Below, in pieces: positions 26,731 through 54,549 of a DNA stretch of 61,686 bases (positions are counted from its first letter, which is position 1; each line of letters begins with the position of its first letter). The translations under genes were made by a program, and so were the position numbers. The DNA lies in assembly GCA_043823745.1 (NCBI GenBank), contig JBDRAN010000012.1, positions 1 through 61,686 on the forward strand, read 5' to 3'. The DNA is from Candidatus Omnitrophota bacterium (lineage in GTDB: Bacteria > Omnitrophota > Gorgyraeia > Duberdicusellales > 4484-171). Below the pieces are notes generated by a model, which was not told the origin of the DNA, made no database searches, and worked only from the letters and a program-made list of their open reading frames with translations.

Positions 26731-28350
26731 ATGAAATTTTCTCTTGGATATAATCACGATATCGGAATGGTGGCGCTTCTTGAGCGCTACCGCGCGCATA
26801 TCGAAGCGCTTTATTTCCCGGCGCCGGGGCGCCTTATCGGCTCCGGCAGGCACCTTGATCAGGATAATCGTTATGAAACGCAAATCCCCGAGCTTATCGC
26901 GGCATGTCAAAAACTCGATATCCGCAGTCAGCTTCTTTTGAACGCAACATGCGAGGGCCGTGATGGCCTGGCCAAGAATTTTTTTTCTCCCCTCGTTACG
27001 TACGTTAAGGATTTACGTGACCGGGGGCTTACCACTATTGTGGTTACCAACCCTCTCTATATCGAGCAATTCAAAAAGTGTATTCCCGGATTAGTTGTTG
27101 AGGCGTCGGTCAACTGTTATATGCGTACGCCGGAGCACGCTGTTTATCTTAAAAATTTAGGCGCAGACATCCTTACGATTGACCGGGATATTAATCGGGA
27201 TATTTCTCTTATTCGAAAGATAAAAGAGGCCACCGGGTTGCCCTTGCGTCTGATGCTTAACGAAGGGTGCGTGCGTAACTGTCCTTTTCGTAATCTTCAT
27301 TATAACTATATCGCGCATGGAGGAATACCTCCGCATGAGGCGCTTAGGGGTATTTGTCTTGATAAATTTTGCATGAAGATATACCGGAAGAATCCGGAAA
27401 AAATATTCGCTATTCCTTTTGTGCTCCCCGAAGATGTCAGGCGTTACAAAGGGCTGGTTGATTTTTATAAACTTACGACCAGGATTTTTTCTACCAAGCA
27501 GCTTGAAGCATGTCTTAAGGCGTATATTTCCGGCACGTTCACAGGGAACCTGCTTACGATTATTGATAGTCCCGGCTTGGCTGCGTTTGAATATGTTGAT
27601 AGCGCGTACCTTGTAAAGAAGAAATTTTTCAAACGAATGCTTTCCTGCGATGGCGTCTGCCGCCGGTGCGGGTATTGCGCGCGGCTTCTTTCACGGGCGG
27701 CAGTTCTTAATCGTGAATATCTCCCAGAAACGGTCCGCGCGTCTCAGGCGCTTCAGGCGATACAGGTTTATCGAAGAGCTCGTAAGTCACAAGGCTTCGA
27801 TAGCGCATTGCAGATAAACGTAGGCAGAGCCTCTATGGACGCGGGGCTCTACAAAAAGGCGATACGAGCGTTTAAGAATGTTATTGTGCGTAATCCCGGC
27901 GAGGCCGAGGCGTATCTTCTTTTAAGTTCCTGTTACGAGAAGAGTGCTCAAATCAAGGAGGCATTTCGGGTGTATCATGAGGCGCTTAAGCGTTTACCGC
28001 AGGCCCGGCCGCTTTATGTGGGGCTCGCGCGCCTTTATTTTGCCATGCGGGATTATGATGCCGTTATAAAAAATATTCAGAGAGCGCTTGATATTCCGGG
28101 CCAGGAGCATATACCCCGGTTATATTTTATGCTCGGTATTTCCTATCAGAAGACGCGGTGCTACAAAAAAGCTCTGCGATTTTTTAACAAGCTGCAGAAA
28201 TATCCACCGGTTGACCCCGAAGTTTACGCTCATCTTTCGCAGTGTTATCGCGCGCTCGGAGAGGTTAGGCGCGCAAAAGATACGCTTGCGCGTGGGTCGG
28301 CATTGCGCGACAATAACGAGACATCTGCGTTGACGCGGCACGCCGCATGA
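26731..28350 (+). CDS. Peptidase U32-family (Fe-S) protein with C-terminal TPR repeats
   Basis: GSGR, LLNATC, EASVN, DRDINRD, NEGCxxxCP..xH, PED, CxxxCxxCxxC; TPR-like helices in the last ~190 aa. Confidence 0.8.
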   Translation: MKFSLGYNHDIGMVALLERYRAHIEALYFPAPGRLIGSGRHLDQDNRYETQIPELIAACQKLDIRSQLLLNATCEGRDGLAKNFFSPLVTYVKDLRDRGLTTIVVTNPLYIEQFKKCIPGLVVEASVNCYMRTPEHAVYLKNLGADILTIDRDINRDISLIRKIKEATGLPLRLMLNEGCVRNCPFRNLHYNYIAHGGIPPHEALRGICLDKFCMKIYRKNPEKIFAIPFVLPEDVRRYKGLVDFYKLTTRIFSTKQLEACLKAYISGTFTGNLLTIIDSPGLAAFEYVDSAYLVKKKFFKRMLSCDGVCRRCGYCARLLSRAAVLNREYLPETVRASQALQAIQVYRRARKSQGFDSALQINVGRASMDAGLYKKAIRAFKNVIVRNPGEAEAYLLLSSCYEKSAQIKEAFRVYHEALKRLPQARPLYVGLARLYFAMRDYDAVIKNIQRALDIPGQEHIPRLYFMLGISYQKTRCYKKALRFFNKLQKYPPVDPEVYAHLSQCYRALGEVRRAKDTLARGSALRDNNETSALTRHAA

Positions 28351-28445
28351 GGGTGACGCATGTTGCGAGAAAATATGTGTACGAGTGTTCTTGATTCCAT
28401 GTTTGTGTGTGGTATGATACAATTGAATGGGTTCAAGGAGGTGCT

Positions 28446-29210
28446 ATGAGAGTGATAGGTTTTTTTATCGTTTGCATCTTAAGTATCGGAAGCGCTTTTT
28501 TTTGTTTTGCAGAGTGTTCTGGTGGCGGATGCGTTGAAAGCGCCGCGGATGAGTGGGTCTTCAACGAAACAAATGCTTATTGTAATGTTTTACCCCGGCC
28601 GGCAGCGAGTTGGTTCGCGAAAGCAGGGGTCAGCGAAGCTTCGCTTCGTTGGGATTTATCTAATTTTTACGATGGTAACTTCTTTCTTTTGAGTAAGCTC
28701 CGGGCAGGGATTGCGTCAGGAGAGGCATTGACCGGAACTCCCCAGGAGCGCGCGCAGTGGCAGCAGGTGATTCAGCAGGCGCAGGTATTACCGTTTCCCT
28801 GGAGGACCGCGGGTATTGCCCGGCTTTCAGGCGGCCGAGCCCGTCTTGTTACTGATGAGGATGGGTTTGCCTCAATTGGACAGGAGCTGATTCTTAAAAA
28901 TAAATACAGTGTTCTTTTGACTTTTAACTATACTGCCGTTCAGGCAAGCAGTAATGATATGCTTGAGGTGGTGGCTATTTTTCCGCCTGCCGTAGGAGAA
29001 ACGGGTGTATCAGAGGAAGTCATTCTTAGTTCGCATCGCTTGGCCCGGCTTTCCGAGCTTGAAGAGGTGTCGATACCGGTTTTTAAAAATAAGAGTTTCG
29101 AGAGAGCGTTTGGCTCGGCCGGAACACGTCGGGTGGAGATCGCCGTGCGGATTAAAGGAAATGCTCAAAAGGCCGCCACCGTTGATTTCGGTAATTTTAG
29201 TATAGCGTAG
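28446..29210 (+). CDS. Secreted hypothetical protein, paralog of 36114-36797
   Basis: GGAGG RBS, signal peptide; PWRTAG, ASIGQELIL and ATVDFG align with PWRARG, ASLSQDIKL and ATVRLD. Confidence 0.7.
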   Translation: MRVIGFFIVCILSIGSAFFCFAECSGGGCVESAADEWVFNETNAYCNVLPRPAASWFAKAGVSEASLRWDLSNFYDGNFFLLSKLRAGIASGEALTGTPQERAQWQQVIQQAQVLPFPWRTAGIARLSGGRARLVTDEDGFASIGQELILKNKYSVLLTFNYTAVQASSNDMLEVVAIFPPAVGETGVSEEVILSSHRLARLSELEEVSIPVFKNKSFERAFGSAGTRRVEIAVRIKGNAQKAATVDFGNFSIA

Positions 29211-29331
29211 GAGTATCCGTATCTCGCGCACCGGGGAAATAAAAATAATTGACTCTATGCTCGGAGGGTGTACAATAACAGTGATGTTTTCGGGTGGTAT
29301 AATCAATAATGATATTAAAAAAGGAGGAGAA

Positions 29332-29787
29332 ATGAGAAGCTGGTATTTTAGATTGGGGCTCATTTTCCTAGTAACCGCTAGCTTTAGTGGTGTGGTGGCT
29401 GCGGCAAGCGAAACGATTACGATAAGCACGTATTATCCTGCCCCCTTCGGTGTATATAAGCAGATGAAAGTTATGCCTACCCAGACTGCATATATGGTTC
29501 TTGGGGATGACCCGAATAATTCGCGTAATCCTGTCATAAGCCTTGTTGACGCGGATGCAACGGCGGCCGCCGGGGCGGGTACGTTACGCCCCTCGATTAC
29601 GTTTCAGAATTCCGTATCTACCGCCGCTGTTGATTTTCGTATTGCACAATTCGGTGATAATGATTTACGTATTATCGGAGGAACGACTACCTTCGTGAAT
29701 AATGGGGGTAATTACGGAAGGATTAGAGCGGGCGAACTTTGGATTTGCAGCGGTCTTGCTACCCCCACCAACATTGTTCCTGATTGA
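29332..29787 (+). CDS. Secreted 'TISTYYPAP' motif protein, paralog of 36886-37302
   Basis: AGGAGG RBS, signal peptide, ETITISTYYPAPFGVYKQM, GDNDLRIIGGTTTF. Confidence 0.75.
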   Translation: MRSWYFRLGLIFLVTASFSGVVAAASETITISTYYPAPFGVYKQMKVMPTQTAYMVLGDDPNNSRNPVISLVDADATAAAGAGTLRPSITFQNSVSTAAVDFRIAQFGDNDLRIIGGTTTFVNNGGNYGRIRAGELWICSGLATPTNIVPD

Positions 29788-29801
29788 CGAGTGGATATAT
29801 C

Positions 29802-30203
29802 ATGACAACAAAAGGCGGCATCATAGAAGAAGGGAAGGATAGCGTCAAATTGGCAGTTAATTGCGAAATGTACCCTCTTCAAAGCGTTTACGCGGCAGCG
29901 TATGTTTTTTTGGATAAAGCGTATGTGTATCTTGATAAAGAATCAAAGGATACAATCAGTGTATGGCTGTTCCGGAAAAACAAAAAAGACAATCTTCGAA
30001 CATTCGGCATGGATTTCTACAACGAGCTTTTAAATTATGCGCATTACTTTAGCAGTCTTAAGGCGAACGCCGAGGCGATTAAGCTCCTGATGCAACGGGC
30101 ACTTTTTTCCGCTTCCCCGTCGCTTGCGCTTGAAGCGGGGAAGAAAGAGATAGAGGGCCTTGCGCAGGAGCTTACCGATAAAAAAGCGCGTAACGGGCGA
30201 TGA
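29802..30203 (+). CDS. hxsD: His-Xaa-Ser system protein HxsD
   Basis: YPLQSVYAAAYVFLDKAYVYLD...DFYNELLNY...ALF matches the HxsD pattern; HxsB and HxS precursor are nearby. Confidence 0.8.
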   Translation: MTTKGGIIEEGKDSVKLAVNCEMYPLQSVYAAAYVFLDKAYVYLDKESKDTISVWLFRKNKKDNLRTFGMDFYNELLNYAHYFSSLKANAEAIKLLMQRALFSASPSLALEAGKKEIEGLAQELTDKKARNGR

Positions 30204-30415
30204 TGTTCTTAAAGAAAACCGGTAAGAAGATATTTATCAAGCTCCACAAGGAGTTATATGACCGGAATGTTATTGAACGGGTCAAGCGCCAGGAGCCCGG
30301 CATTCTCGGTGTGGTACATAGCGACGCCGCGCATTATCTTGTTGAGATGAGGACAAAACAGAGACGCGATTACCTTGATTTTTTAAATTATCTTATCTAT
30401 ATGGCGCGCGCATAG
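30200..30415 (+). CDS. Small HxsD-like protein
   Basis: 71 aa, coupled to hxsD; IKLHKELYD...DFLNYLI echoes the HxsD layout. Confidence 0.55.
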   Translation: MMFLKKTGKKIFIKLHKELYDRNVIERVKRQEPGILGVVHSDAAHYLVEMRTKQRRDYLDFLNYLIYMARA

Positions 30416-30475
30416 CGTGGTGATAGCGTAAAAATCGAGCTAAAAAATTTTCCTGTTCTAAAAAGGAGGTCGTCG

Positions 30476-30889
30476 ATGAGTAAACCGAAAGAAAAAAAAC
30501 ACTTTAAACCCGTGGCCCGGAGTATCAAGAACTTCCTTAAAGATGAAGATGGTTTCGTTACAAAAAGCAGCATTCTTAAAATTAGCTTAGGGACAGTCGC
30601 TTCCATGGGAATCCTTAGCTCGGCATTTGCGGATTATAATATAAGCCCTATTCGTGTCTCTGATGTCTGGGTTAATACTAACTTTGCTAATTTTCACACC
30701 AACAGTGTCGGGCTTGCCGCGCTCCCTGCCCCTTATGCTGCTCAATTTCCTGAATGTCAACGTATGCTTCATACTAATACGACCGCTCACTTAAGCCATA
30801 GTTCGCATGATTTCCATATGAACGTACGCGGACGGCTTGACGCTAAGGGGTGGGTTGGTAAGATCGTCTACAACGGCCCGTTACTTTAA
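30476..30889 (+). CDS. Putative RiPP-like precursor 1: Flp-pilin-like leader plus His-Xaa-Ser/His-Xaa-Asn core
   Basis: AGGAGG RBS; leader IKNFLKDEDG|FVTKSSILKISLGTVASMGILSS; core HTN, HTN, HLSHSSHDFHMN. Confidence 0.8.
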   Translation: MSKPKEKKHFKPVARSIKNFLKDEDGFVTKSSILKISLGTVASMGILSSAFADYNISPIRVSDVWVNTNFANFHTNSVGLAALPAPYAAQFPECQRMLHTNTTAHLSHSSHDFHMNVRGRLDAKGWVGKIVYNGPLL

Positions 30890-30909
30890 GCAGCATAGTT
30901 TCTGCCTAT

Positions 30910-31722
30910 ATGCGAGGTTTAAAGGCGTTCGGCCACCAATATCAAAAGGGTATTAGATTATTTTCTATTGCAGTCGTGTTTATCGTGGTGACGGTTAGTT
31001 TTTCCGTTGCGGATGCCCAAGAAAATAGCAATACTCCTTCCTTCCTGCCGGGAAAAAATTCCGATGATAGTTTCCAGCGTAAGATAGCCTTCGCTAAAGA
31101 TGTCTTGCAGAAGGCGGGATACCTCGAGATCCTCGAGGTGTATCGCGCGGTTAGAGAAGAGGATACATCTCGGTGCGCATCACCCCAGGCGGTAACCCTT
31201 GCCAACGATCTGCTTGCCTTACGCTATGCCGGAGAGAATCGTTGCGGCAGCATCAAAAATGTTCTTTTCCGCCAGATGTGCGAAGCTGCAAACGCTGACA
31301 GTTGCGATGCGGCAGGTCCTTTAAAAAATTTCTGCTCCGGGGTGCGCGCAAGCGATCCCGTAAGACTTATGCGTGAGCTTTCAGGCGGTGAATTTTTGAA
31401 AGCGCTTGGCGTGCAATTGCCTATCACCGAGAACACCGTTTTATTCGGGCTCTCAATATATTATGGATTTAAGCATTACAGTCCTGTCGCTTGCGAGCGC
31501 TTTTTGAATGACGCGCGTCTTCCGTTGTCCTCCAAGGTTTCCTGCCAGCTTCTTTTCGCTCAGGATTTTAATAGTCAGTATGATTCGCTTGTTAATGATC
31601 TCGCTCTTTTTATGGTTTCGCGCCTGGCGCCACAGGAAGGTGCTTGCGAACAGATACAGAATGGGCGGGTGAAAAAGGCGTGCTTGAACAAGGCGATTAA
31701 AGACTTGGGCGATATCTGGTAA
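30910..31722 (+). CDS. Secreted cysteine-rich hypothetical protein
   Basis: Signal peptide; repeated C-x2-I-x-N-x6-C units (CGSIKNVLFRQMC, CEQIQNGRVKKAC). Confidence 0.7.
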   Translation: MRGLKAFGHQYQKGIRLFSIAVVFIVVTVSFSVADAQENSNTPSFLPGKNSDDSFQRKIAFAKDVLQKAGYLEILEVYRAVREEDTSRCASPQAVTLANDLLALRYAGENRCGSIKNVLFRQMCEAANADSCDAAGPLKNFCSGVRASDPVRLMRELSGGEFLKALGVQLPITENTVLFGLSIYYGFKHYSPVACERFLNDARLPLSSKVSCQLLFAQDFNSQYDSLVNDLALFMVSRLAPQEGACEQIQNGRVKKACLNKAIKDLGDIW

Positions 31723-31726
31723 TTTT

Positions 31727-32581
31727 TTAGCGAAACATTTTGAAGAGCGTTTCCGGAAAACCCGCATAGGTAAGGAGCGCTCCCAGGAACATAAAAGGCG
31801 CCAGGGGCACACGTACGGGCTTTTTGCTTTGGAGCCCTATCGCGGCGTTGAGAATATAGAAACCGATAGAATAGAGGAGTGTTATGCGCATAAAGGCTAT
31901 AATATTTCCGGGTTCAAAGAAGCGTGGCATCGTACAGTAGCGCAGCATGAGTCCCCCGATACCAAGAACAAGGATAAGGAGTTTGTAGCGGATTACGCTG
32001 ATACCCTGGAATATGACGGCATATGAAATAAAAAGAATTACAACGTTAAGGAAAGGGTTGGGGGGAAGTGGTAGAAGTTTTAAGGCCGGCGGCACGATCC
32101 AGGTGATGCTTGCAATGATCATGATTGTCCTTCCAAAATAGAGCATGGTTTTTTTTGATATCAATTGCTTGAAGAACGTAGTTTTATTCTTGATTATATC
32201 GTTCCCCAGCGAAGGAACCAGCCCCAGAAGACTGACAAGAAACGTATTAAGGAAAAGCGCCAGGCAGGGGAGCGGCACTACCGATTGATTGGCTGCGGAG
32301 GGGACCAGGAGCAGGGAATAGGTGACAAAGAGCTTTGCGTCTCCTGCTTTCCAGGCACGGGCAAGATAAAGTATGAACCCGATACCAAGCCCGACGAGAG
32401 GATTCAGAACAATGCGGGGTGTCCAGGGGATAGAGCCAAGCGCCATGCCGACACCGTACCCGAGAATTCCGGCTGTGCCGAGCGCGCACAGGTGCCTGTT
32501 GCGTATTTTTTTTATGGCGATGTCGGTAGTTATGGTAAGCGCCCCGGTTACAAGAAGCACAATTAAAAAATATATATTCAT
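31727..32581 (-). CDS. A24 family prepilin peptidase without methylase domain
   Basis: Catalytic aspartates in TTDIAIKKIRN and AGDAKL; C-terminal RVPLAPFMFLG; multi-TM. Confidence 0.88.
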   Translation of the reverse strand: MNIYFLIVLLVTGALTITTDIAIKKIRNRHLCALGTAGILGYGVGMALGSIPWTPRIVLNPLVGLGIGFILYLARAWKAGDAKLFVTYSLLLVPSAANQSVVPLPCLALFLNTFLVSLLGLVPSLGNDIIKNKTTFFKQLISKKTMLYFGRTIMIIASITWIVPPALKLLPLPPNPFLNVVILFISYAVIFQGISVIRYKLLILVLGIGGLMLRYCTMPRFFEPGNIIAFMRITLLYSIGFYILNAAIGLQSKKPVRVPLAPFMFLGALLTYAGFPETLFKMFR

Positions 32582-32662
32582 GGTATTTTTTGTTATTATA
32601 GCATATCGGGCTCAACGAGCAGTATTTTTTTCTGATGCTTCCGCGGCGAGGGTGAAGGCTCT

Positions 32663-33661
32663 ATGAGTAAATTTACGATACGGAGGTGTTTATCGGGTGA
32701 TCTTTCTAGCCTGGTTGGATTTTTCCGGCGCATGAAAGCCGCGTACGATGTTAATTTCCTGCCGCAGGATAAAGATGCGTTTTTGGAAAAATATTATTGG
32801 CCGGACGCGGAAGAAAAATTTAATTATTATCTTCTGCATAATCGTGATGGCGCAATCGTCGGCGGCACCGGATATGTCCCTTTTAAGGGTCTTTTTTGCC
32901 GGAAACCGCTCTCCGGGTTTGTGGCAACGGATAGCATCATCGACCCGGCCTGGCGCCGGAAGCTCCCCGGGCTCGTCCCTTTATTTGCGCGTACGTATGA
33001 GCGCATGGTGCGCGGCGAAAAGCTATTTCCATTGGCCTGCCCCGCTTCAGAGACGGTTGCGGAAAGTTTCAAGCGAGTGCGCTGGAGCCAATTTACCTGG
33101 ATTTACAAGCTGTATAGTCCGGTTGTAGCCAGGGTTACCCCGCACCTGGCGGCAGCGGGGCTTTGCATTGAGCGGATTGAATGTTTTGATAAGTCGTTTG
33201 AAGAGTTTTTTAAAATGATCGCGTCGGACTACGATTTCCTGATGCACGCCGATCGGGAATTTCTTAATCAAAAATATTGCGGCAATACCCGGGGCCCGTA
33301 TGTCATCCTTGCCGCGCATATGAAGCGTAAACTTTCCGGTTACCTGGTATGCCTGATACGCGACTGCGACATTGAAATCGTCGACGTCACGATCGACATA
33401 CGTTTGCCGCACCTTATCCTTTTCTTGATGTATGCGGCATTTTCGTATTGCCCCCGCCGGGATATTGCGATAACAACTTGTTATGTCAGCAATAAACGTT
33501 ATTTTGAAATCTTGCGTTCAATGGGCTTTTCCTGTTGCTGGGAGGTTGAATGTTTATTTTTTAAACCCGTGGCATTATTCCACCCGGGTTTTGCCGCCGC
33601 AATGGAGCAGTCTGATATGTCAACCTATCATTGCAACGGTTTTACGCAGCAGGCATATTGA
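32663..33661 (+). CDS. Tandem-GNAT acyltransferase 1
   Basis: GFVATDSIIDPAWR, YDFLMHADREFLNQKY, IEIVDV; paralog of 39442-40452. Confidence 0.72.
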   Translation: MSKFTIRRCLSGDLSSLVGFFRRMKAAYDVNFLPQDKDAFLEKYYWPDAEEKFNYYLLHNRDGAIVGGTGYVPFKGLFCRKPLSGFVATDSIIDPAWRRKLPGLVPLFARTYERMVRGEKLFPLACPASETVAESFKRVRWSQFTWIYKLYSPVVARVTPHLAAAGLCIERIECFDKSFEEFFKMIASDYDFLMHADREFLNQKYCGNTRGPYVILAAHMKRKLSGYLVCLIRDCDIEIVDVTIDIRLPHLILFLMYAAFSYCPRRDIAITTCYVSNKRYFEILRSMGFSCCWEVECLFFKPVALFHPGFAAAMEQSDMSTYHCNGFTQQAY

Positions 33662-33721
33662 TGCACGTAATAAGCGCGCAATCATTTTAGTGGATTTTTT
33701 TTGAAGGGTGTGTATAGTAAT

Positions 33722-34612
33722 ATGGCTATGCCGACGGTGGTAACCGGAATATCTTTTGTCTCTGTTAAAACCCTGCCGCAGGTCGCGGATATTGTCGAAT
33801 GCAGCCGCCGCCTCCTGGTTGATCGAGGTGCCGTCATTACCCCGCAGGCGTCCCGCCGCTACGGTTTTTTTCTTGGAACAACATTCAGTAATTTTGCTAT
33901 CCGTAAAGCTAACACTGAAAAGTATTTTTCTCGGGGTGTCCGGCCCATCAACCCCGCCGATTTCCCCAAAGGTTTAATTTCATATCTGGGCGGCGAGTCA
34001 TGCACCGCGCTGGGTATCAAGGGATTTAACATTACCTTTTCAAGCGGTGTTTCTTCAGGCGTTGACGCGCTTATGCAAGGAGTGTATTTTGCCGCGCGGC
34101 ATAAGGGCAATAGGGCGCTGGTGCTTACGCTGCATGAAGCTTTAAAGTCAAACGCGCGTATCGGTTTTTCGGGAATAAGCGGTATTATGGTTGAGGCCGC
34201 GCCTCTTTGTGAGCGTTCCTATGCCGAGATTATGGGATTTAAGTCAGTCTTTGAAAAAGCAGGAGATTGTGAAGGATTACAAAAGCTTATCACGGCGGCT
34301 GTAACGCAGTACCGCCTCCATGAAGCTTCCTTGATGGTTGCCTGTAGCGGCCGATCACGTGGCTCTATAGGATCCCGGCTCTTTGAGCGGATACGTGCAT
34401 CATATCCTATGGTAGAAACGATCAAGTCACCGGTACGTGGCGGGATTTCTGAATTGCTGCGGATCGTAAAGAAAAAAATATGGCTCAAGGAAAAGTATAT
34501 TTTGTTCTCGCAGCTCGGGGAAAACAGCAATAGCGGTTGCGTTGTGCTGCGCGTATCGAAAAGAGGAGGATATCCCGATGAAAAAAAATTCTACCAAAAA
34601 AAGTGTGCGTAA
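33722..34612 (+). CDS. Ketosynthase-like partner (chain-length-factor-like, no catalytic Cys)
   Basis: YGFFLGT, INPADFP, LGIKGFNITFSSGVSSGVDAL where the active-site Cys is absent, YAEIMG; precedes ACP and KS. Confidence 0.72.
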   Translation: MAMPTVVTGISFVSVKTLPQVADIVECSRRLLVDRGAVITPQASRRYGFFLGTTFSNFAIRKANTEKYFSRGVRPINPADFPKGLISYLGGESCTALGIKGFNITFSSGVSSGVDALMQGVYFAARHKGNRALVLTLHEALKSNARIGFSGISGIMVEAAPLCERSYAEIMGFKSVFEKAGDCEGLQKLITAAVTQYRLHEASLMVACSGRSRGSIGSRLFERIRASYPMVETIKSPVRGGISELLRIVKKKIWLKEKYILFSQLGENSNSGCVVLRVSKRGGYPDEKKFYQKKCA

Positions 34613-34895
34613 GAAAACCAAATCCGCTCATTCCGCGCCCCCGGCAAGCGGGAACATTAGAGACCAGGCTATTGAAATTATCAGCAATCTTGCGAAGCTG
34701 CCGAAGGATAAAATGCTGCAGTATAATCGGGAGAACTTTACCGATGTAGGTCTTGATTCTTTTACACTGGTTGAAATTGTATTTTCTATCGAGAACACGT
34801 TTGACATTGATATTCCGCAGGATAGTTTACCCGGTATCAAAAATCTTGATGATTTGATTTCACTTATTGAGGAGCTTGTTAAAAAACGTGGCTGA
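34578..34895 (+). CDS. Acyl carrier protein
   Basis: GLDSFTLVEIVFSIENTFDIDI phosphopantetheine site; GAGGAGG RBS. Confidence 0.92.
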   Translation: MKKNSTKKSVRKKTKSAHSAPPASGNIRDQAIEIISNLAKLPKDKMLQYNRENFTDVGLDSFTLVEIVFSIENTFDIDIPQDSLPGIKNLDDLISLIEELVKKRG

Positions 34896-36039
34896 ACGGG
34901 TTGTGGTGACAGGTCTGGGCGTTGTTTCTTCGCTGGGCGTTACCGTCGAGGTATTTTGGAAGAACCTTATTGCAGGGGCTTCAGGGATGAGTCCTATCGA
35001 GGCGTTTGCGACCGGGCACCTGGAACGCCGCGTCGGAGGAGAAATAAAAAAGTATCAGATTCCTGCAGGCACTCATCATCTGCCCCGGAGCCATCAATTT
35101 GCAATCGATGCATGCGCGAAGGCTCTGGCTGACGCGGGCCTGAGCTACCCGGCGCATTGTGATGTCGCCTTAGGGAGTATTGTCGCAGGACTCGAGTTTC
35201 TTGAAAAAAAACACAAGAGCTTTAAAAATTACCCGCTATATATGCTTGCGGCTAACGTTATAGAGATGCTTACGGTGCGCGGCGCCGCCTTTACGGTGTC
35301 CGGAGCCTGCGCCGCGGGAAACTACGCGGTAGGCTTGGCGTATGAGCGCATTAAGCGCGCAGAGGCAGAGGTGATTCTTGCCGGGGGCGCTGACTATTTT
35401 TCTGAAGGAACATTCATCGGTCTTTATAAAGTTTTTTCACTCGCGCCGGATATATGTCAGCCGTTTGATAAAAATCGTAAGGGCTTGATCCCGGCGGAGG
35501 GTGCGGGAGTACTTGTTCTTGAGTCGCTTTCAAGCGCCCGCAGGCGGGGCGCGCGTATTTACGCGGAAGTTCTAGGCTATGGAGCAAGCACCGATGCCTA
35601 TCACCCGCTCATTCCCTTGCAGGAAGGCATTTATGGGTGCATGGAGGATGCCTTGCGCGCATGCGGCGTCAGCGGCAGTGATATCGATTATATTAGCGCG
35701 CATGGTACGGGCACGGTTCCTAATGACAAAGCGGAATGTCAAGCAATACGCAAACTTTTTGGCAAAGCGCGTTCTAAAAAAATACCCGTAAGCTCAATCA
35801 AATCGATGCTCGGCCATGCGATGGGGGCGGCAAGCGCGATTGAGTCGATTGCCTGCTGTATGGCTATTTCCCGTGGAATACTCCCACCAACGATCAATTA
35901 TAAAACTCGTGATCCTGAGTGTGACCTTGATTGTGTGCCCAATACCGCGCGCGCTTATCGGGCTGATATTATCCTTAACAATGCCTTTGGGTTTGGCGGG
36001 ATGAATTGCTCTGTTGTTCTGGGACGTTGGAAAAATTAA
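34888..36039 (+). CDS. Beta-ketoacyl-ACP synthase (FabF/KAS II-like)
   Basis: RVVVTGLG, GACAAG (Cys), AHGTGT, KSMLGHAMG, NAFGFGGMN. Confidence 0.95.
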   Translation: MAERVVVTGLGVVSSLGVTVEVFWKNLIAGASGMSPIEAFATGHLERRVGGEIKKYQIPAGTHHLPRSHQFAIDACAKALADAGLSYPAHCDVALGSIVAGLEFLEKKHKSFKNYPLYMLAANVIEMLTVRGAAFTVSGACAAGNYAVGLAYERIKRAEAEVILAGGADYFSEGTFIGLYKVFSLAPDICQPFDKNRKGLIPAEGAGVLVLESLSSARRRGARIYAEVLGYGASTDAYHPLIPLQEGIYGCMEDALRACGVSGSDIDYISAHGTGTVPNDKAECQAIRKLFGKARSKKIPVSSIKSMLGHAMGAASAIESIACCMAISRGILPPTINYKTRDPECDLDCVPNTARAYRADIILNNAFGFGGMNCSVVLGRWKN

Positions 36040-36076
36040 TAGGTACGGTGTTTGGCCGGCAGGATACGTTGTTTTC

Positions 36077-36104
36077 TTGACAAGAAACGGTTATGCGATA
36101 TACT
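36077..36104 (+). promoter_or_regulatory. Sigma70-like promoter for the second cluster module
   Basis: TTGACA-N16-TATACT. Confidence 0.55.
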
Positions 36105-36113
36105 AAAAATATC

Positions 36114-36797
36114 ATGAAAATGCAGAGGAGAAAAGTCATTACCGCTGGTTTTTTACTTGCGCTGTTTCCGGTATGGTGCTATGCGCAGACTATTACCATA
36201 AAAGGATCAACCGAGAAAAAACCCCTTACCACGGCTCAGATAGGCGCGTCCTACGAAGTTTCCGATAATTTTCAAAACGGTGATTTTCAGCAATCCGCTC
36301 AGTATGAAACGGCAGTTGCGTCAAACCCCCTGTTTAATCCTCCCTATGCGTTGCGTGCGAACGAACAAGCCCTGGTTGATTTTTTTAAGAAGCCGCTCCT
36401 GTTGCATCCTTGGCGTGCACGAGGCGATGTGAAGCTGGTGCATGAGGGGGATAACATTCTTGTCCAGCTTAATCTTGCCAAGGGGGTGGAAGCATCATTG
36501 TCTCAGGATATTAAATTGAGAGATAAAAATGCTCGTATTGAATTTGATCTTTTTGGTACGGGTGGCGCACCGTCGGGGGTATTTGAGGTAGCGATTCTTG
36601 ATGCATCGGGCCGCTTCCCGATCGCCACATACAGCGCATCTACGATCTCATCCCAGAAACATTGCGTTATAAATCTAAGCGGCAATAAAAATCTTATGGC
36701 TCGCAAAGCCGGCGATACGCTCACGGTTGAGTTTTCCTTACGGGGCAAAGAGCAAGATTCGGCAACCGTGCGTCTTGACTCTGTAGTGATTATGTAG
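36114..36797 (+). CDS. Secreted hypothetical protein, paralog of 28446-29210
   Basis: Signal peptide ending CYA; C-terminal beta-rich domain shared with the paralog. Confidence 0.7.
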   Translation: MKMQRRKVITAGFLLALFPVWCYAQTITIKGSTEKKPLTTAQIGASYEVSDNFQNGDFQQSAQYETAVASNPLFNPPYALRANEQALVDFFKKPLLLHPWRARGDVKLVHEGDNILVQLNLAKGVEASLSQDIKLRDKNARIEFDLFGTGGAPSGVFEVAILDASGRFPIATYSASTISSQKHCVINLSGNKNLMARKAGDTLTVEFSLRGKEQDSATVRLDSVVIM

Positions 36798-36885
36798 CAA
36801 TAGTGAAGGGCTCTTACGCGCCGCCGGCGTGCGTATAGGTATTCTTAAAAAAGAGATATTCGTTCTCGAAAAGAAGGAGGAGTGT

Positions 36886-37302
36886 ATGAGGAAAAATTTT
36901 TTTGTTGCTCTTATGTGTGCCGCGGTGGTGTCTATCGGTGCGAGTGCGTTTTGCGCCGATGAAACAATAACGATATCCACCTATTATCCGGCTCCGTATG
37001 GTGTGTATAAAAAAATGCAAATTATGGATACCCAGGGAGCCAACATAACCTTGTACAGTAGTGACCCCGTTACCGCCGGTAACCCTACGTTAGCCTTAAG
37101 CGATAGTAATGCAGCCGGGGGGTTGATCCCTTCAATTACGTTTGATAATGATCCAGCAGCCAGCCCTGACTTTCGCATATCACTTCGTGGCGATAACGAT
37201 CTTCGGGTGCAGGGGGGCACGACGACATTTACCGATGATGCCGGAAACTATGCGCCCGTGCGTACCAGTAAAATTATTATTTGTTCCGGAGCCGCAACGT
37301 AA
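36886..37302 (+). CDS. Secreted 'TISTYYPAP' motif protein, paralog of 29332-29787
   Basis: AAGGAGG RBS; ETITISTYYPAPYGVYKKM, GDNDLRVQGGTTTF, ICSG. Confidence 0.75.
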   Translation: MRKNFFVALMCAAVVSIGASAFCADETITISTYYPAPYGVYKKMQIMDTQGANITLYSSDPVTAGNPTLALSDSNAAGGLIPSITFDNDPAASPDFRISLRGDNDLRVQGGTTTFTDDAGNYAPVRTSKIIICSGAAT

Positions 37303-37363
37303 TTACTATGGTGTATCCCGTATGTATCGAAAAAACACTATTGCGTAAGGGGTGGGCGTCGCA

Positions 37364-38764
37364 ATGACTGATCGCGTAACACTTCCTTTTAACTCGCGCG
37401 TGATACGTAACAGGTATCTTGTGTCCAATGCCCTTGGAAACTGGGATTTTCTGGAGAAGAACGAATTTCAGGCTTTTCATGGATTGCGTCTTAAACAGGG
37501 AACACCTCTGTTTAGGCGGCTTTATGAGAAAGGTTTGTTGGCGGATGAGCATAACATAAAAACTCTGGTCGATGACTACCGGAATTTAAATGCTAATATT
37601 TTCCATGACACCAGATTACATATTGCCGTTGTGACAACCCGGTGCAATTTACGCTGCTGCTATTGCCAGGCACATACCGGCGCGTACCAGGATATGGACA
37701 TTACGGTCGCAAGCCGTGTTTTAAAGAATATCTTTGACGTTAAAAGCCCCTGCGTTACGTTAGAGTTCCAGGGTGGTGAGCCGCTGCTTAATTGGGAGAC
37801 GGTGCGCTTTCTCATCGAGCAGGCTACAAAGATCAATAACGGCGTAAAACAGCTGCAGTTTTCCCTGACGAGTAATCTAACCTTGCTTGATGATGAGAAA
37901 ATGAAATTTCTCACGGACCACGGCGTCGGAATGTGCGGTTCTTTAGATGGCCCCCGGCACATTCATGATCATAATCGAACGTTTGCCAAGGGCGCGGGAA
38001 GTTACGATACCGTAGTCAAAAACATTCATAGATTTGAAACTGCGTTTGGCGCCAAAATAGGTCTTCTCCCCACCGTTACTAAGCACTCATTACCGTATTA
38101 TAAAGACATCGTTGATGAGTATGTGCGTCTTGGTCAAAGCAGCATTGCGCTTCGGCCGGTCAATCAGCTGGGGCATGCCTGTGCGCAGTGGAATACGCTT
38201 GGCTATACCGCTGAGGAGTTCAGTGAGTTCTACCGCAAGGCCCTTGAGTATATTCTTTCCTTAAATAAAAAAGGGATTTTCATTCGCGAGCGAATGGCTG
38301 CGATTATGCTTGAAAAAGTGCTCAATAAAAAAGATCCCGGATATGTTGAGCTGATGAATCCCTGCGGCGCGGGCCGGGGCCAGATCGTGTATATGCCGGA
38401 TGGAAGTTGTTACCCGTGCGATGAGTCTCGGATGGTGGGTGATGAGATGTTTAAGCTTGGCAATATTCTCGATGAGGATTACGAGGACCTGATGCACAAG
38501 GAAAATCTCCTGCACCTTCTTGAGTCTTCCCTGATGAACCTGTGGGATTATAATTCTGCGTTTGCGCCCTGGATGGGGACCTGCCCGGTTGTTAATTACG
38601 CGGCGCAGAAGAACTTTGTTCCTAAAATCTGGTGTTCAGCGGTCCATAAAATCTATACGGCTCAATTTAACTATCTTTTTGAAAAAATGGAGCAAAGCGA
38701 GGAAAATACAAAGATTTTTAGGCAATGGATAAAAAAGGAGGGTGTTTATGAATCAAAAAAATAA
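37364..38764 (+). CDS. hxsB: His-Xaa-Ser system radical SAM maturase HxsB-like
   Basis: LPFN..YLVSN N-terminus, LHIAVVTTRCNLRCCYCQA, EFQGGEPLLN, SLDGP, GYVELMNPCGAG, YPCDESRM. Confidence 0.85.
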   Translation: MTDRVTLPFNSRVIRNRYLVSNALGNWDFLEKNEFQAFHGLRLKQGTPLFRRLYEKGLLADEHNIKTLVDDYRNLNANIFHDTRLHIAVVTTRCNLRCCYCQAHTGAYQDMDITVASRVLKNIFDVKSPCVTLEFQGGEPLLNWETVRFLIEQATKINNGVKQLQFSLTSNLTLLDDEKMKFLTDHGVGMCGSLDGPRHIHDHNRTFAKGAGSYDTVVKNIHRFETAFGAKIGLLPTVTKHSLPYYKDIVDEYVRLGQSSIALRPVNQLGHACAQWNTLGYTAEEFSEFYRKALEYILSLNKKGIFIRERMAAIMLEKVLNKKDPGYVELMNPCGAGRGQIVYMPDGSCYPCDESRMVGDEMFKLGNILDEDYEDLMHKENLLHLLESSLMNLWDYNSAFAPWMGTCPVVNYAAQKNFVPKIWCSAVHKIYTAQFNYLFEKMEQSEENTKIFRQWIKKEGVYESKK

Positions 38765-39179
38765 GAAGCGATTTGATACCGTCGGGAAAACAATCAAGAG
38801 CTTCATGCGAGATGAGGATGGGTTTGTCGATAAGGGAAAAATCTTAAAAATCAGTTTGGGTACCGTTGCGACATTGGGTATCCTTTCCTCGACATTCAAT
38901 AGCCAGGCTTTAGGGCATGCTAACTACCGACATCAGAATTATGCCGGCCCCAGTGATCCCCAAATTACACACATGAATGGGCAGCTGAATCTTACCAGCC
39001 ACGCCAATACCGTGACGCTGCAGAATATTACGGGGATGACGGGCTGTCAGGAGATAGTGCATAGTAATGCGAATAATGTATTGAAGACATATGTCTTAAA
39101 TGGGGGGATTAACGGTACGGCGACGTATCGCGACTTCTATAATCAATGGGGCGAGGGTGGCAAAATATACGAAGTATAA
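38748..39179 (+). CDS. Putative RiPP-like precursor 2: Flp-pilin-like leader plus five His-Xaa-Asn motifs
   Basis: AAGGAGG RBS inside the hxsB end; leader IKSFMRDEDG|FVDKGKILKISLGTVATLGILSS; HAN, HQN, HMN, HAN, HSN. Confidence 0.8.
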   Translation: MNQKNKKRFDTVGKTIKSFMRDEDGFVDKGKILKISLGTVATLGILSSTFNSQALGHANYRHQNYAGPSDPQITHMNGQLNLTSHANTVTLQNITGMTGCQEIVHSNANNVLKTYVLNGGINGTATYRDFYNQWGEGGKIYEV

Positions 39180-39441
39180 AAAATCGGCTGCCGGTGTATC
39201 GCACGAATCAATTTTTTGATACGATCGTCCGAGTATAGAAACCGCCCGGGAATACGTTGTTGATTTTTCTCCATGGATGCGTGCCTAAAACATGGCACAC
39301 ATGAGTGCGGCTCGGTAGGTTCCTGGAGTGCGTATATTTTCCCGCTGACAATTATCATGTGTCCGGTCTGTCCGCTGCCGGCACGTAACATCACATTAAG
39401 TTTGATTCCTTTATTTTTTCGAAGATTTCTACCCATGGTGT

Positions 39442-40452
39442 ATGCCAACGAACTTAAAGTTTCACGTATGTCGATGCAGCGTCGATGATATCGATAATCT
39501 TGTTACGTTTGCCTCAAGGCTGGCGCATAAGAACATAGTTTTTTTACCCCGCTCCAAAGAACACTTCCTGCGTAAATATCTTAGTTATGGAGAAAAAACC
39601 GGAACGCTCAATCTTTTTGCTATCAAGCGAGAAGATGGAGATATTGTTGGTGTGAGCGGCTTTGTTCCGTTTAAGGGATTTTTTGGCAACAAAATTTTCC
39701 AGGGCTTTATCGGCACTGACGCGGCGATTGACCCCCACTACACCGTCCGCTATCCCGGCCTGGCCGCAATGCTTGCAATGAGTTATGAATCGATGGTACG
39801 TGTCGAGAAGCGGTTTCCCTTAATTTTCCCTAACGATAAAAAGGTCCTTAAAGCGTTTCGGGGTGTGCGCTGGGGAGAGTTTTCTCGCCTGGAGGAGTGG
39901 GTAAATCCTTTCGCGATGCAGCTTATCCCTGATTTTGGCACCGGATCAATCGAAGTCTCGCGCATAGAGCATTTTGAATCTTCAGACCAGCGGTTTTTTA
40001 AACGCGTGGCTTCGCAGTATGATTTTCTGATGCAGGCGGATATTGATCTTTTAAATTGGCGGTATTTTGACAATCCATATGCGGCACAGTCTATCGTCGT
40101 GGCTGCGCGCCGGCAGGGCGAGCTTGCCGGTTACATGGTGGTGCAGGGCGTGGGGGTAGACATCTGCATTGTCGATACGGTTATCGATTTGGAACACCCC
40201 TCCGCGCTTTTACTGCTGCTTTTTAAAACCTTGGAATACTTTGACCGTACCGCGAGCGCGCGTATCCTGTGCTATATGAGCCACCAGCGGTATATTGAAA
40301 TTTTAAGTAAAATAGGATTTTTTAGACAGCATATCTTAAAATGCCTTTTTTTTAAGGCAGGATTGCTTTTTAGCAACACTTCACATGACTTGATGCATGC
40401 TGGTACTTCTCAGCGTTACCATTTTAATGGGTTTGCCCCGCATTTGTGCTAA
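39442..40452 (+). CDS. Tandem-GNAT acyltransferase 2
   Basis: GFIGTDAAIDP, YDFLMQADIDLLNWRYFDNP, YHFNGF; paralog of 32663-33661. Confidence 0.72.
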   Translation: MPTNLKFHVCRCSVDDIDNLVTFASRLAHKNIVFLPRSKEHFLRKYLSYGEKTGTLNLFAIKREDGDIVGVSGFVPFKGFFGNKIFQGFIGTDAAIDPHYTVRYPGLAAMLAMSYESMVRVEKRFPLIFPNDKKVLKAFRGVRWGEFSRLEEWVNPFAMQLIPDFGTGSIEVSRIEHFESSDQRFFKRVASQYDFLMQADIDLLNWRYFDNPYAAQSIVVAARRQGELAGYMVVQGVGVDICIVDTVIDLEHPSALLLLLFKTLEYFDRTASARILCYMSHQRYIEILSKIGFFRQHILKCLFFKAGLLFSNTSHDLMHAGTSQRYHFNGFAPHLC

Positions 40453-40649: not shown

Positions 40650-40976
40650 ATGGTATACGTCTATATTTTAAAAAGTAAGAAAGATGCGAGCTATTATGTT
40701 GGTCAAACTGAGCATATTGTTGATAGATTATATAGACATAATACAGCGCAATCTGTATCAACAAAATTAAAGATACCTTGGGAATTAGTTTATCTGGAAG
40801 AATTTAACACGAGGCCACTCGCAGTTAAACGGGAACTGCAGATAAAGAAACAAAAGCGTAAAAAATATATAGAAAGATTAATCAAATCGGGGCGTGGCTC
40901 AGTTCGGCTAGAGCACTTGGTTTGGGACCAAGAAGTCGGTGGTTCAAATCCACTCGCCCCGACCAAAATTTCATGA
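40650..40976 (+). CDS. Small GIY-YIG nuclease family protein (ORF reads through tRNA-Pro)
   Basis: MVYVYILKS....YYVGQT....RL.RHN...PWELVYLEEF...A..RE..IKK. Confidence 0.88.
   Translation: MVYVYILKSKKDASYYVGQTEHIVDRLYRHNTAQSVSTKLKIPWELVYLEEFNTRPLAVKRELQIKKQKRKKYIERLIKSGRGSVRLEHLVWDQEVGGSNPLAPTKIS
40888..40965 (+). tRNA. tRNA-Pro(TGG)
   Basis: CGGGGCG acceptor, CTTGG-TTTGGGA-CCAAG, GTTCAAATC, ACCA. Confidence 0.96.
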
Positions 40977-44251: not shown

Positions 44252-44323
44252 GAAACAAACCAAGAGAGGCTATTTACAAGAGATCGATTTTGGTATATCA
44301 TAAAAAGGTAAAAAAAGGAAATT

Positions 44324-44761
44324 ATGACGCATTCCAAAAGCAATAGTCCGGGCAGTGAACGAAGAAGGTTTAGGCGTGTTCGGGTTAACTTAGTGGTCGT
44401 GTATCGTGAGGATGAGCCCCTTGATGTTCGTATCCGCGCCGGGGGTGTTGAACATGCCTCAACCATGGTTGATATCTGCGAGGAGGGAATCTCGATCCTG
44501 ACAGATATCAATGTTTCGGTGGCAACAGTGCTGTGGATTCGTTTTACGCTGGCAGAACCAAAGAGCAAAGGCCTTGATTTTTACGGGACTGCGGAGATAA
44601 AGGGTAAGGTTTTATATAGCATGCTGATACCCACGGGGCATTACCGATTAGGGATTCACTTTTTTGATTTAAAAGATAAAGAACGCCGTCTTATCGCAAA
44701 CTTTGTAGATATAGTCGATAAGAAGCTTTCAATAGATGGCGAAACGAACATGCGTGAATAG
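44324..44761 (+). CDS. PilZ domain protein
   Basis: ERRRFRRV (RxxxR) and DICEEG (D/NxSxxG variant), YRLGIHF. Confidence 0.85.
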   Translation: MTHSKSNSPGSERRRFRRVRVNLVVVYREDEPLDVRIRAGGVEHASTMVDICEEGISILTDINVSVATVLWIRFTLAEPKSKGLDFYGTAEIKGKVLYSMLIPTGHYRLGIHFFDLKDKERRLIANFVDIVDKKLSIDGETNMRE

Positions 44762-45348
44762 CGATCGCAATCCCGTCCGCAACCGTTGAAAACATTAGAT
44801 TCTCTTTTTGAGCGCATTCTGTTTTCGCCACTCGTAGCGGCAACTGAGGAGTTTTGTTTAAAATTCTACCGAGAATTGACAGCACAGCGAATAGAGTATT
44901 ATTTCTTACGAGTAGGACTTTATAAAATCAGTTCTTAATGCATGAATGACAGGCATACGCGCAAGAAGCTGCCGAAGTTAAGAAAAAATTGAAGCAGCAA
45001 AGTACTTCTGAGATTCTCTTTGGGGATTGACAAGTGGAGCGTGTTTGACAACTTTGATAAGTCTTTCAGCGAAACGTCAGAAAGGGGTAGAACCCCTTTC
45101 TGAAGGTTGAGTTTTCGCTGAAAGCGAAACAATAATGCGAAGCATTTTCAACCCGGGAGGTGCAGCTTAATAAGCCTTGTTTTTTGCAATGAAGCCCGAG
45201 CGTGACAAGGTTCACTTGCTGAATTGTGTAAAGAATTCTTAACCGAATTATCCCTATAAAATTCAATAATTTTGATGAGGATAGAGCATATGATTGTGAA
45301 CTGTTTCGTTCATTTGACAGAGAAATTGTTCTTTGGTAATATATATTC

Positions 45349-54548: not shown

Positions 54549-54549
54549 A

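Follow-up and report, generated by a model that had tools for sequence, protein, structure and literature searches.

A variant Hxs-type radical-SAM locus in Omnitrophota with a co-travelling A24-type peptidase and a clade-specific acylation-type module

Which of the genes crowded around a radical-SAM maturase of an uncultured groundwater bacterium belong to one pathway, and what might that pathway make? The question is raised by a block of about 14 kb (positions 26731-40452) in a 61,686-nucleotide stretch of DNA, referred to here as the window, from Candidatus Omnitrophota (assembly GCA_043823745.1, contig JBDRAN010000012.1; genome labelled G000, 92% complete). The block holds 17 genes, on the plus strand throughout bar one minus-strand gene, and the original prediction took it for a single pathway in which peptides with pilin-type leaders are modified by a His-Xaa-Ser (Hxs) radical S-adenosylmethionine (SAM) system, cleaved, acylated and possibly hydroxylated. 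We consider it fairly probable that the block represents the Hxs system in a variant form specific to the Omnitrophota lineage, equipped with a dedicated A24-type peptidase, arranged in two sub-modules and working by the steps set out below, with the U32-TPR gene at its edge as a neighbour only. For the product of the pathway we infer, with decreasing strength, leader cleavage, acylation and a role in the envelope or in defence.

The identity of the core is plain. All components named in the original prediction are present, as judged by Pfam and NCBIfam profiles, alignments and structure models (Table 1), and the claim of an Hxs-type radical-SAM maturation locus holds: HxsB, which has CxxxCxxC and SPASM matches, exceeds the cut-off of TIGR03978, is the one match over that cut-off genome-wide, and is accompanied by HxsD-like and HxsA3-like matches. 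The other profile searches gave a more mixed picture, with HxsD, A24 and U32 matches below their cut-offs and none for HxsC (TIGR03977), for which the best score in the 92%-complete genome, 48.6 bits on another contig, compares with a cut-off of 267.9. The HxsD-like gene occupies the expected position in all 20 related neighbourhoods described below, and homologues of the short HxsD-related open reading frame (ORF) that overlaps it are found in the same position by tblastn. No second radical-SAM protein was found in the block by Pfam or NCBIfam, and PADLOC, in a 2023 release that predates HXS, returned only generic viperin-type radical-SAM matches for HxsB and a weak TPR match. Beyond the list of the original prediction, the block contains a pair of secreted proteins termed TIST, a second pair termed sec, the protein p270 and the 71-residue HxsD-related ORF, and it lacks HxsC.

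The peptidase follows HxsB across the class. In a phylum sample of 401 genomes, HxsB homologues (counted at E<=1e-30) occur in 44, all in the window's class, and the A24-like protein (profile of ten homologues, E<=1e-10) in 42; the two are found together in 41 of the 44 HxsB genomes, against a single A24-like protein among the 357 genomes without HxsB, counts that are descriptive and overstate statistical support, as the genomes are related and not independent. The exceptions are three genomes with HxsB and no A24-like protein (G276, G385 and G392) and one with a weak partial A24-like match and no HxsB (G240). The A24-like peptidase is dedicated to the system and accompanies HxsB across the class. 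The window genome has a canonical A24 gene besides (48.4 bits, on another contig), so the cluster copy is an extra one.

The neighbours recur in the same way. We compared 20 neighbourhoods, comprising about 20 kb around HxsB in 18 genomes and two loci from a scan of species genomes with a GNAT alignment, and counted homologues by tblastn with the window proteins (E<=1e-4), dropping HxsB hits of less than 35% identity and, for the larger queries, hits of less than half coverage (Table 1). The scan itself had found four loci, two labelled Candidatus Omnitrophota, one 'bacterium' and one Planctomycetia, the last placed in the window's family. All four GNAT loci share a common order: TIST, HxsD, (HxsD-related), HxsB, precursor, (p270), A24-like (minus strand), GNAT, ketosynthase (KS) partner, acyl carrier protein (ACP), KS. 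The components thus co-occur in homologous loci, as the original prediction supposed, with the full order in four other genomes. Past the peptidase the order is identical in five genomes, and the GNAT and KS-partner ORFs overlap or abut. TIST, where found, lies 5' of HxsD; the A24-like gene, where it falls outside the fetched ~20 kb, is 10-30 kb off on the same contig or on another contig. The accessory set of the Hxs/A24 core is modular in the class.

Table 1. Genes of the block in order of position. aa, amino acids; HMM, hidden Markov model. The last column gives the number of the 20 related neighbourhoods with a homologue, entered once per gene family.
Gene or product	Coordinates	Strand	Profile, model or other evidence	Neighbourhoods (of 20)
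U32-TPR, U32-like N-terminal domain and TPR C-terminal half	26731..28350	+	TPR strong; PF01136 20.6 bits, cut-off 22.4	0
sec, secreted, 267 aa, family unassigned	28407..29210	+	no Pfam / NCBIfam match	2
TIST secreted protein 1, likely start 29332	29257..29787	+	signal peptide, then conserved motif ETITISTYYPAPFGVY	14
HxsD-like protein	29784..30203	+	TIGR03976 35.7 bits, E 8.2e-9, below cut-off 50	20
HxsD-related ORF, 71 aa	30200..30415	+	NF038315 E 0.045 only; overlaps HxsD ORF	8
HxsA3-like precursor 1, 137 aa	30476..30889	+	NCBIfam HxsA3 26.0 bits, cut-off 65	17 by tblastn; 18 with leader HMM
p270, 270 aa, signal or anchor sequence, Cys-rich, mostly helical	30910..31722	+	no Pfam / NCBIfam match	6
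Divergent A24 (GxGD) aspartic membrane peptidase without methyltransferase domain	31727..32581	-	PF01478 18.6 bits, cut-off 26.5	13
Tandem-GNAT acyltransferase 1, N-myristoyltransferase-like fold (predicted), 332 aa	32663..33661	+	model only, no Pfam / NCBIfam match	6; 7 with HMM
KS-like partner without Cys-His-His triad (chain-length-factor-like)	33701..34612	+	PF00109 21.6 bits	4
ACP, likely start 34578 (from L047 orthologue), LDSF serine motif	34542..34895	+	PF00550 32.5 bits; TIGR00517 E 2e-10	4
FabF-like KS	34867..36039	+	PF00109 and PF02801; TIGR03150 346.9 bits, below cut-off 493.75	4
sec, secreted, 234 aa, first gene of sub-module B	36093..36797	+	paralogue of 28407-29210	
TIST secreted protein 2, likely start 36886	36829..37302	+	47% identical to TIST 1	
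HxsB radical SAM/SPASM maturase	37352..38764	+	TIGR03978 412.8 bits, cut-off 370	
HxsA3-like precursor 2, 145 aa (GTG) / 143 aa (ATG at 38748)	38742..39179	+	HxsA3 18.9 bits, cut-off 65	
Tandem-GNAT acyltransferase 2, 336 aa	39442..40452	+	38% identical to GNAT 1 over full length, E 2e-74; no Pfam / NCBIfam match	

The candidate substrates of the peptidase are the precursors themselves. Precursor 1 is built of a Lys-rich leader, the junction DEDG/FVTKSS (the slash marking the position after the Gly), a hydrophobic segment, five His-x-Ser/Asn/Thr motifs and a C-terminal extension, and precursor 2 has the junction DEDG/FVDKGK and five His-x-Asn motifs; the two are 65% identical over the N-terminal 48 residues and unrelated beyond. 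Their HxsA3 matches are confined to the leader, and Pfam found no peptidoglycan-binding domain in either, while the HxsA3 model is matched over its full length by a short precursor of a relative (39.1 bits). None of the 18 proteins that a homologue search with the precursor alignment gave is named HxsA3, and an exhaustive profile search for the family gave, at E<=0.001, 405 representatives, with 81 left at E<=1e-10. Among 23 precursors from the loci (25 HMM hits, less one that fell a second time in the same ORF and one off-pattern), the Gly of the D-E-x-G core is invariant, followed by Phe at +1 in 19 and by Glu or Asp at +5 in 20. In a wider set of 160 sequences (the best 150 of the 405 plus overlapping homologue hits), all 158 with a residue in the Gly column have Gly there, 113 of the 158 are acidic at +5, and 145 members of the set have at least two His-x-Ser/Asn/Thr motifs. 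A hydrophobic stretch of 19 residues (Kyte-Doolittle mean about 1.5; 1.52 from residue 33 in precursor 1) begins 7-8 residues past the Gly. The leader thus has the single strict hallmark of class III signals and is otherwise only loosely like them. Mutagenesis of pilins has identified the Gly as the sole residue strictly needed by prepilin peptidases.

Most members of the precursor family are short, about 80-110 residues, with a compact His-rich core. Tyr is the C-terminal residue in 78 of the 158 (Ser/Ala/Thr-Tyr endings), and another group ends in Gly-Lys or Phe-Lys; C-terminal Tyr chemistry occurs in other SPASM systems, such as that of mycofactocin. In one relative (G169), tandem precursors have 11-12 His-x-Ser/Asn/Thr motifs.

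The peptidase is divergent and recognizable. All ten homologues match PF01478 at E<=0.1 (best 1e-6), and residues D20, N28, W77, G80, D81, K83 and P262 are invariant among them, including both catalytic Asp motifs (D20 in TDIAIKKIRN and D81 in KAGDAKL) and a C-terminal Pro motif. Its AlphaFold2 (AF2) model, with a predicted local distance difference test score (pLDDT) of 80.1, aligns by VIA-align to FlaK (3s0x_B) with Z 13.5 and a root-mean-square deviation (rmsd) of 3.6 A over 173 of 186 residues, the next chain scoring Z 4.5; a sequence search of the PDB with the family profile gave no match. When the peptidase was modelled together with leader residues 1-60, the complex scored 0.35 against 0.00 for the best control, with at least 69% of contacts agreeing between runs and a partner pLDDT of at least 56. 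Of 80 solved complexes, 58 reached the mark used for such predictions, as did 2 of 110 mismatched pairs; with a score of 0.60 or less, only 7 of the 80 and both mismatches reached it. This model lends the pairing of peptidase and leader weak support.

Does the A24-like protein, then, cut the leader after the Gly? In a competing account it does not: the DE-x-G core would serve HxsB or HxsD for recognition, the precursor would be exported and trimmed through Sec and signal peptidase or some other activity, and the A24-like protein would serve some other co-encoded substrate or act as a non-proteolytic membrane partner or immunity factor. We think this account unlikely, while granting that several observations weigh against cleavage by the A24-like protein or speak for its competitor. 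The +1 position is variable in the wider family (Phe in 52, Lys in 51 and Asn in 11 of the 158). The window precursors have Phe at +1 and Ser and Gly at +5, and are two of the three exceptions to an acidic +5 in the locus set; acidic residues stand just before the Gly (-2 and -3), a departure from the canonical class III signal. An AFA site of Ala-x-Ala type past the hydrophobic segment of precursor 1 could be cut by signal peptidase I, and the conserved leader core of about 20 residues could be the recognition site of HxsB or HxsD. One 96%-complete genome (G392) keeps the precursor junction DEDG/FVSKET, and an A24-like gene was not found in it. Foldseek alone, run with the peptidase model, returned nothing at E<=0.001, with FlaK at rank 38 (E 1.2; template modelling (TM) score 0.53 by target), and to this are added the modest complex score and the common ancestry of the genomes counted above. 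In E. coli, moreover, cleavage of HxsA depends on HxsB, HxsC and HxsD, and the available text of PMC13128918 names no protease for it. Set against these points are the presence of the peptidase in 41 of the 44 HxsB genomes and in one genome only without HxsB, the invariance of the Gly in all 158 wider representatives, and the invariance of both catalytic Asp residues in ten homologues, which argues for an active enzyme; furthermore, the other secreted proteins encoded in the block have ordinary signal peptides and no Gly-hydrophobic junction. The pilin-type leader of the original prediction survives in part: the invariant Gly before a hydrophobic segment stands, while the window copies lack the acidic +5, the family varies at +1, and no pilus or secretion assembly gene (ATPase, platform or secretin) was found among the 17 block genes by Pfam or NCBIfam.

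A further uncertainty concerns the modification chemistry. HxsC, which forms a core complex with HxsD in E. coli (PMC13128918), is missing from the window genome, and the chemistry may therefore differ from that of the E. coli system, a point that also counts against the reading favoured here.

Downstream of the peptidase lies a second set of genes whose products would be suited to acylation. The AF2 model of GNAT 1 (pLDDT 70.8, residues 120-160 below 50) gave 152 PDB matches at E<=0.001 in Foldseek, the top ones N-myristoyltransferases and tandem-GNAT acetyltransferases; by VIA-align, each of the 50 best PDB entries is an N-myristoyltransferase (Z 14.3-15.6 and rmsd 4.3-4.8 over about 280 residues), led by one at Z 15.6, rmsd 4.3 and 286 aligned residues, with about 10% sequence identity. 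A PDB sequence search with the GNAT profile found only RimI (E 0.18). The C-terminal carboxylate is catalytic in N-myristoyltransferase, and all eight close GNAT homologues end at the identical alignment column. From the predicted fold and the adjacent KS and ACP genes, acyl transfer by the GNAT to a protein amine may be expected. The KS retains the triad motifs GACAAG, HGTGT and GHAMG, while in its partner, aligned with it, the Cys is replaced by Val and both His are absent. In the window and in L047 (17476-17787), the dedicated ACP is extended at its N-terminus by a Lys-rich stretch of about 30 residues, unusual for a type II ACP.

This family of GNATs is rare, with five proteins in a word-indexed set of 5.8 billion proteins and four loci among species genomes. 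Full-length copies occur in seven of the 401 genomes (G000, G323, G393, G278, G169, G221 and G224), all of them HxsB genomes, and adjoin Hxs or A24-like genes in the six genomes checked (in G221, the peptidase); partial matches to the profile in 31 other genomes mostly cover the C-terminal GNAT half. The module of GNAT, KS partner, ACP and KS is clade-specific and operon-like. Its clade, here called the KS clade, also has for the most part its own form of precursor, in which the C-terminal Ser-Tyr is replaced by an extension of about 25 residues with a conserved Lys-Gly (window precursor 1, L047, L073 and L075); the Lys-Gly extension is common to four of five extension-bearing precursors of the clade, window precursor 2 being the different one.

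That this module acts on the Hxs product is the step for which a second alternative has to be considered, namely that GNAT, KS partner, ACP and KS form a separate small pathway, for example for an N-acyl amino acid or another lipid. The module is present in only 4 of the 20 neighbourhoods, the block has no reductive fatty-acid synthase (FAS) genes, with no ketoreductase (KR), dehydratase (DH), enoylreductase (ER) or acyltransferase gene found in it or alongside the GNAT/KS/ACP set, and G393 has the module together with a standard short precursor that lacks the extension and ends in Ser-Tyr; all three observations tell against acylation of the precursor. Conversely, the order past the peptidase is identical in five genomes, the full-length GNATs keep to HxsB genomes, the window GNAT has been duplicated along with the precursor while the KS set has not, and the KS clade has both its own precursor extension and its own sec protein; we accordingly rate a separate pathway as improbable, to about the same degree as an uninvolved peptidase. 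Less likely again, in our view, is a released, soluble, His-rich modified peptide in the manner of a classical peptide made on the ribosome and modified after translation (RiPP), metal-binding or antimicrobial, in place of an envelope-anchored product. The short precursors with compact His-rich cores, the frequent Tyr ending that recalls SPASM chemistry and the His-x-Ser/Asn repeats, which could bind metals, would suit such a peptide; on the other hand, no exporter, C39 peptidase or immunity gene was found by Pfam or NCBIfam among the genes of the block, both the membrane peptidase and the conserved hydrophobic segment suggest an envelope location, and the characterized Hxs relative gives a periplasmic protein effector, as described in the available text of PMC13128918.

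The gene at the upstream edge of the block can be set aside more firmly. The U32-like half of U32-TPR is supported by a match to the U32 protease of PDB 5d88 (E 6.6e-7), and the original prediction had it hydroxylate the peptide as a member of one single pathway. It was found in none of the 20 related neighbourhoods; among 31 relatives, a full-length orthologue occurs only in the same-genus genome G401, on a short contig past SmpB-IMPase, all other matches covering the TPR part only. In G323, a single-copy cluster lies between SmpB-IMPase and GIY-YIG/tRNA/TPR genes as in the window, without U32-TPR, the IMPase gene being followed directly by a sec gene. U32-TPR is probably an adjacent gene and not a component of the system, and since it is not conserved with the system, the proposed hydroxylation is left without support and the idea is best dropped. 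To the full original model, for which only the adjacency in the window and probably in the same-genus genome can be adduced, we give very little credence.

The layout of the window itself bears on which enzymes go with which precursor. Sub-module A runs sec, TIST, HxsD, HxsD-related, precursor 1, p270, A24-like (minus strand), GNAT 1, KS partner, ACP and KS; sub-module B runs sec, TIST, HxsB, precursor 2 and GNAT 2. The two are complementary: there are two each of precursor, GNAT, TIST and sec, and one each of HxsB, HxsD, p270, the peptidase and the KS partner/ACP/KS set. No additional leader, A24-like gene or GNAT was found in the rest of the genome. Duplication of precursor and GNAT next to a single KS set fits a GNAT matched to its own precursor. 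The layout suggests that the duplicated precursor, GNAT, TIST and sec act as matched sets and that features common to the sets are what HxsB, HxsD, the peptidase and the KS set act on. An assembly chimera was considered as its source and rejected: contigs of two public groundwater runs (X1 and X2) span the junction of KS and sec (34976-39250 and 35546-36630) and that of HxsD-related and precursor 1, where HxsB is missing (29514-30614), so the layout is not an artefact of one assembly, with the proviso that these runs may be the window's own samples. An HxsB remnant between 30415 and 30476 was likewise rejected, as only 60 bases are available there. A scan for regulatory sites was overall not above chance (33 promoter-like sites against 23.4 +/- 5.2 expected by chance, and 17 terminator-like sites against 18.5 +/- 4.1); its best promoter-like site (36077-36104, 11 of 12 matches) lies at the start of sub-module B.

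Several relatives have two HxsD-HxsB units (G169, loci L051/L052; G224, L061/L062; G401, contigs C31 and C221), and duplication of the system is therefore common in the class. In other families of the class, the core has extra radical-SAM genes (L053, 3404-4684 and 8958-9899; also L048 and L056). In G149 (L053) these are a distant HxsC4-like one between HxsD-related and HxsB (NF038332 151.7 bits, cut-off 500) and one of 426 residues past the peptidase, together with DUF2334 and DUF5674 genes.

Three kinds of secreted protein accompany the core. The TIST proteins share the motif ETITISTYYPAP(F/Y)GVY immediately past the signal peptide, with its T, T, Y, Y, P, P and G columns invariant or nearly so in 12 homologues. 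An Atlas search with TIST 2 gave weak leads to tail-fibre-like folds (scores <=0.87, TM <0.5), and Pfam found no match for TIST, for a 340-residue cousin on contig C2 or for a 237-residue relative. This cousin, the third protein of the genome with a TIST motif (TISTYYPAPYGIY; C2:904-1926, locus L085), has tail-fibre-like repeats (GKVGIGT...L.V.G) and a Cys-containing C-terminal part, and the preceding ORF looks similar. Small fibre-like surface proteins of this organism may generally begin with the TIST motif as an N-terminal module. The sec proteins are weakly related to one another (22% identity, E 0.001), and both neighbourhoods with sec homologues belong to the KS clade. Homologues of p270 lie downstream of the precursor, and an Atlas search with it gave nothing above 0.81.

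How does this variant compare with described systems? His-Xaa-Ser systems were first defined bioinformatically (TIGR03976-03979). The E. coli HxsABCD system (Li et al., Nat Commun 2026; PMC13128918) is a broad antiphage defence and blocks the entry of phage DNA; its HxsA undergoes HxsB/C/D-dependent maturation, in which the final HxS repeat becomes heavier by 8 Da (+8 Da), is shortened at the N-terminus by a non-canonical cleavage that needs HxsB, HxsC and HxsD, is exported and acts in the periplasm. In the available text of that paper, the words 'peptidase' and 'protease' occur 0 times each, and HXS systems are placed in Pseudomonadota in 99.7% of cases, with the four-gene make-up in >99.8%. 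The Omnitrophota locus is like it in an HxsB over the curated cut-off, an HxsD-like gene directly upstream, His-x-Ser-type repeats in a precursor whose N-terminus is of export type, and an N-terminal leader that is presumably removed. It is unlike it in that HxsC is absent from the window genome, a distant HxsC4-like protein being found in other families of the class; in that the window precursors are of HxsA3 type, without a peptidoglycan-binding domain and with His-x-Asn as frequent as His-x-Ser; and in its additional genes, namely those for the dedicated A24-like peptidase, for sec, TIST and p270 and, within one clade, the GNAT/KS/ACP set.

With class III signals and their peptidases (type IV pilins, Flp, archaellins; A24 enzymes of TadV/FlaK type), the locus shares GxGD, both Asp motifs, a FlaK-like modelled fold and the lack of a methyltransferase domain, as well as a charged leader, an invariant Gly and a hydrophobic helix, with Phe at +1 and an acidic +5 in most close relatives. 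By contrast, it has acidic residues before the Gly, polar residues at +3 to +9 and, in a third of the wider family, Lys at +1; the window copies lack the acidic +5, genes for a pilus ATPase, platform or secretin are missing, and the peptidase, at about 285 residues, has extra helices. The GNAT resembles eukaryotic N-myristoyltransferase in the tandem arrangement of its model and in the shared C-terminal end column of eight homologues, and differs from it in sequence (about 10% identity, no Pfam match, a moderate model) and in a donor that would probably be acyl-ACP, not acyl-CoA. Type II polyketide synthase (PKS) and aryl-polyene pairs of KS and chain-length factor likewise combine an active KS, a triad-less KS-like partner and an ACP in one operon, whereas the partner here is about 300 residues long with Val or Phe at the Cys position, and KR, DH, cyclase and acyltransferase genes are missing nearby; classical chain-length factors have Gln at the Cys position.

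The original prediction knew of no described system that joins RiPP chemistry, pilin processing and a dedicated type II FAS or PKS. Hybrids of RiPP and fatty-acid chemistry with an acyltransferase are known: lipoavitides combine a KS III, FAS enzymes and an acyltransferase, and goadvionins and lipolanthines are cited alongside them in 10.1101/2023.10.25.564083; selidamides (PMC8784127) are further lipidated RiPPs from hybrid clusters. What remains of the claim is that we found none with a prepilin peptidase. Like these clusters, the block encodes a precursor, a peptide-modifying enzyme, a dedicated KS and ACP, and an acyltransferase together; unlike them, it has a tandem GNAT of N-myristoyltransferase-like predicted shape, a FabF-like KS with a triad-less partner, an Hxs radical-SAM enzyme and an A24 candidate leader protease. 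Our literature search found no paper in which a prepilin peptidase is combined with Hxs or other radical-SAM maturation of peptides; the available text of PMC9062424 mentions HxsB merely as an annotated cluster, and the passages found of an Omnitrophota genome survey (10.64898/2026.06.07.730766) do not mention the Hxs/A24 system.

Under the reading that we favour, a lineage-specific Hxs variant with a dedicated A24-type peptidase, HxsB and HxsD would modify the His-rich core of the precursor in the cytoplasm. The precursor would then enter the inner membrane via its hydrophobic segment, where the A24-like peptidase would cut the Lys-rich leader after the Gly (DEDG/F), leaving a product either anchored by its new N-terminal helix or released to the periplasm, to work with TIST, p270 and sec. 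In the KS clade, KS, partner and ACP would make an acyl-ACP from which the tandem GNAT would acylate the processed precursor, at the new N-terminal amine or at a Lys in the clade-specific C-terminal extension. By analogy with the E. coli system, the likeliest role for the product would be that of an envelope-located effector, for instance a phage barrier; this is the least secure step, and that defence is suggested by analogy alone counts against it. The complete chain, in which a leader protease dedicated to a radical-SAM-matured family is followed, in one clade, by GNAT acylation to give a lipidated His-rich envelope protein with fibre-like partners, for example a barrier to phage DNA entry, is possible, and we put it forward as a tentative and doubtful proposal.

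Other features of the window lie outside the block. Directly downstream, a GIY-YIG ORF (40650-40976) runs into a tRNA-Pro gene (40888-40965), and relatives keep a short remnant of its end beside the tRNA and a conserved TPR gene. From 44000 to 61686 the G+C content is 0.38-0.42, compared with 0.45-0.51 upstream, and past a tRNA-His gene (45822-45898) follow an IS200-like transposase (46005-46670), a trypsin-like peptidase, an MMPL transporter with a LolA-like protein, an MFS transporter and a methyltransferase; the region may have been acquired as an island. At 20001-22000, beside a tRNA-Ser gene (21754-21844), the G+C content falls locally to 0.404, with negative GC skew.

The partly duplicated layout of the window amounts to a natural experiment on which enzymes of the system are specific to their precursor. 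If the acylation-type module acts on the Hxs product, it would be a new way of arriving at ribosomal products that carry a lipid. More broadly, the Omnitrophota variant encodes a candidate protease for the unexplained N-terminal cleavage of HxsA-type proteins and makes the question of that cleavage directly testable. Processing of the leader by this enzyme would be the first case found of prepilin-peptidase processing joined to radical-SAM peptide maturation, and, if true, the activity that trims the canonical E. coli HxsA might also be a prepilin peptidase.

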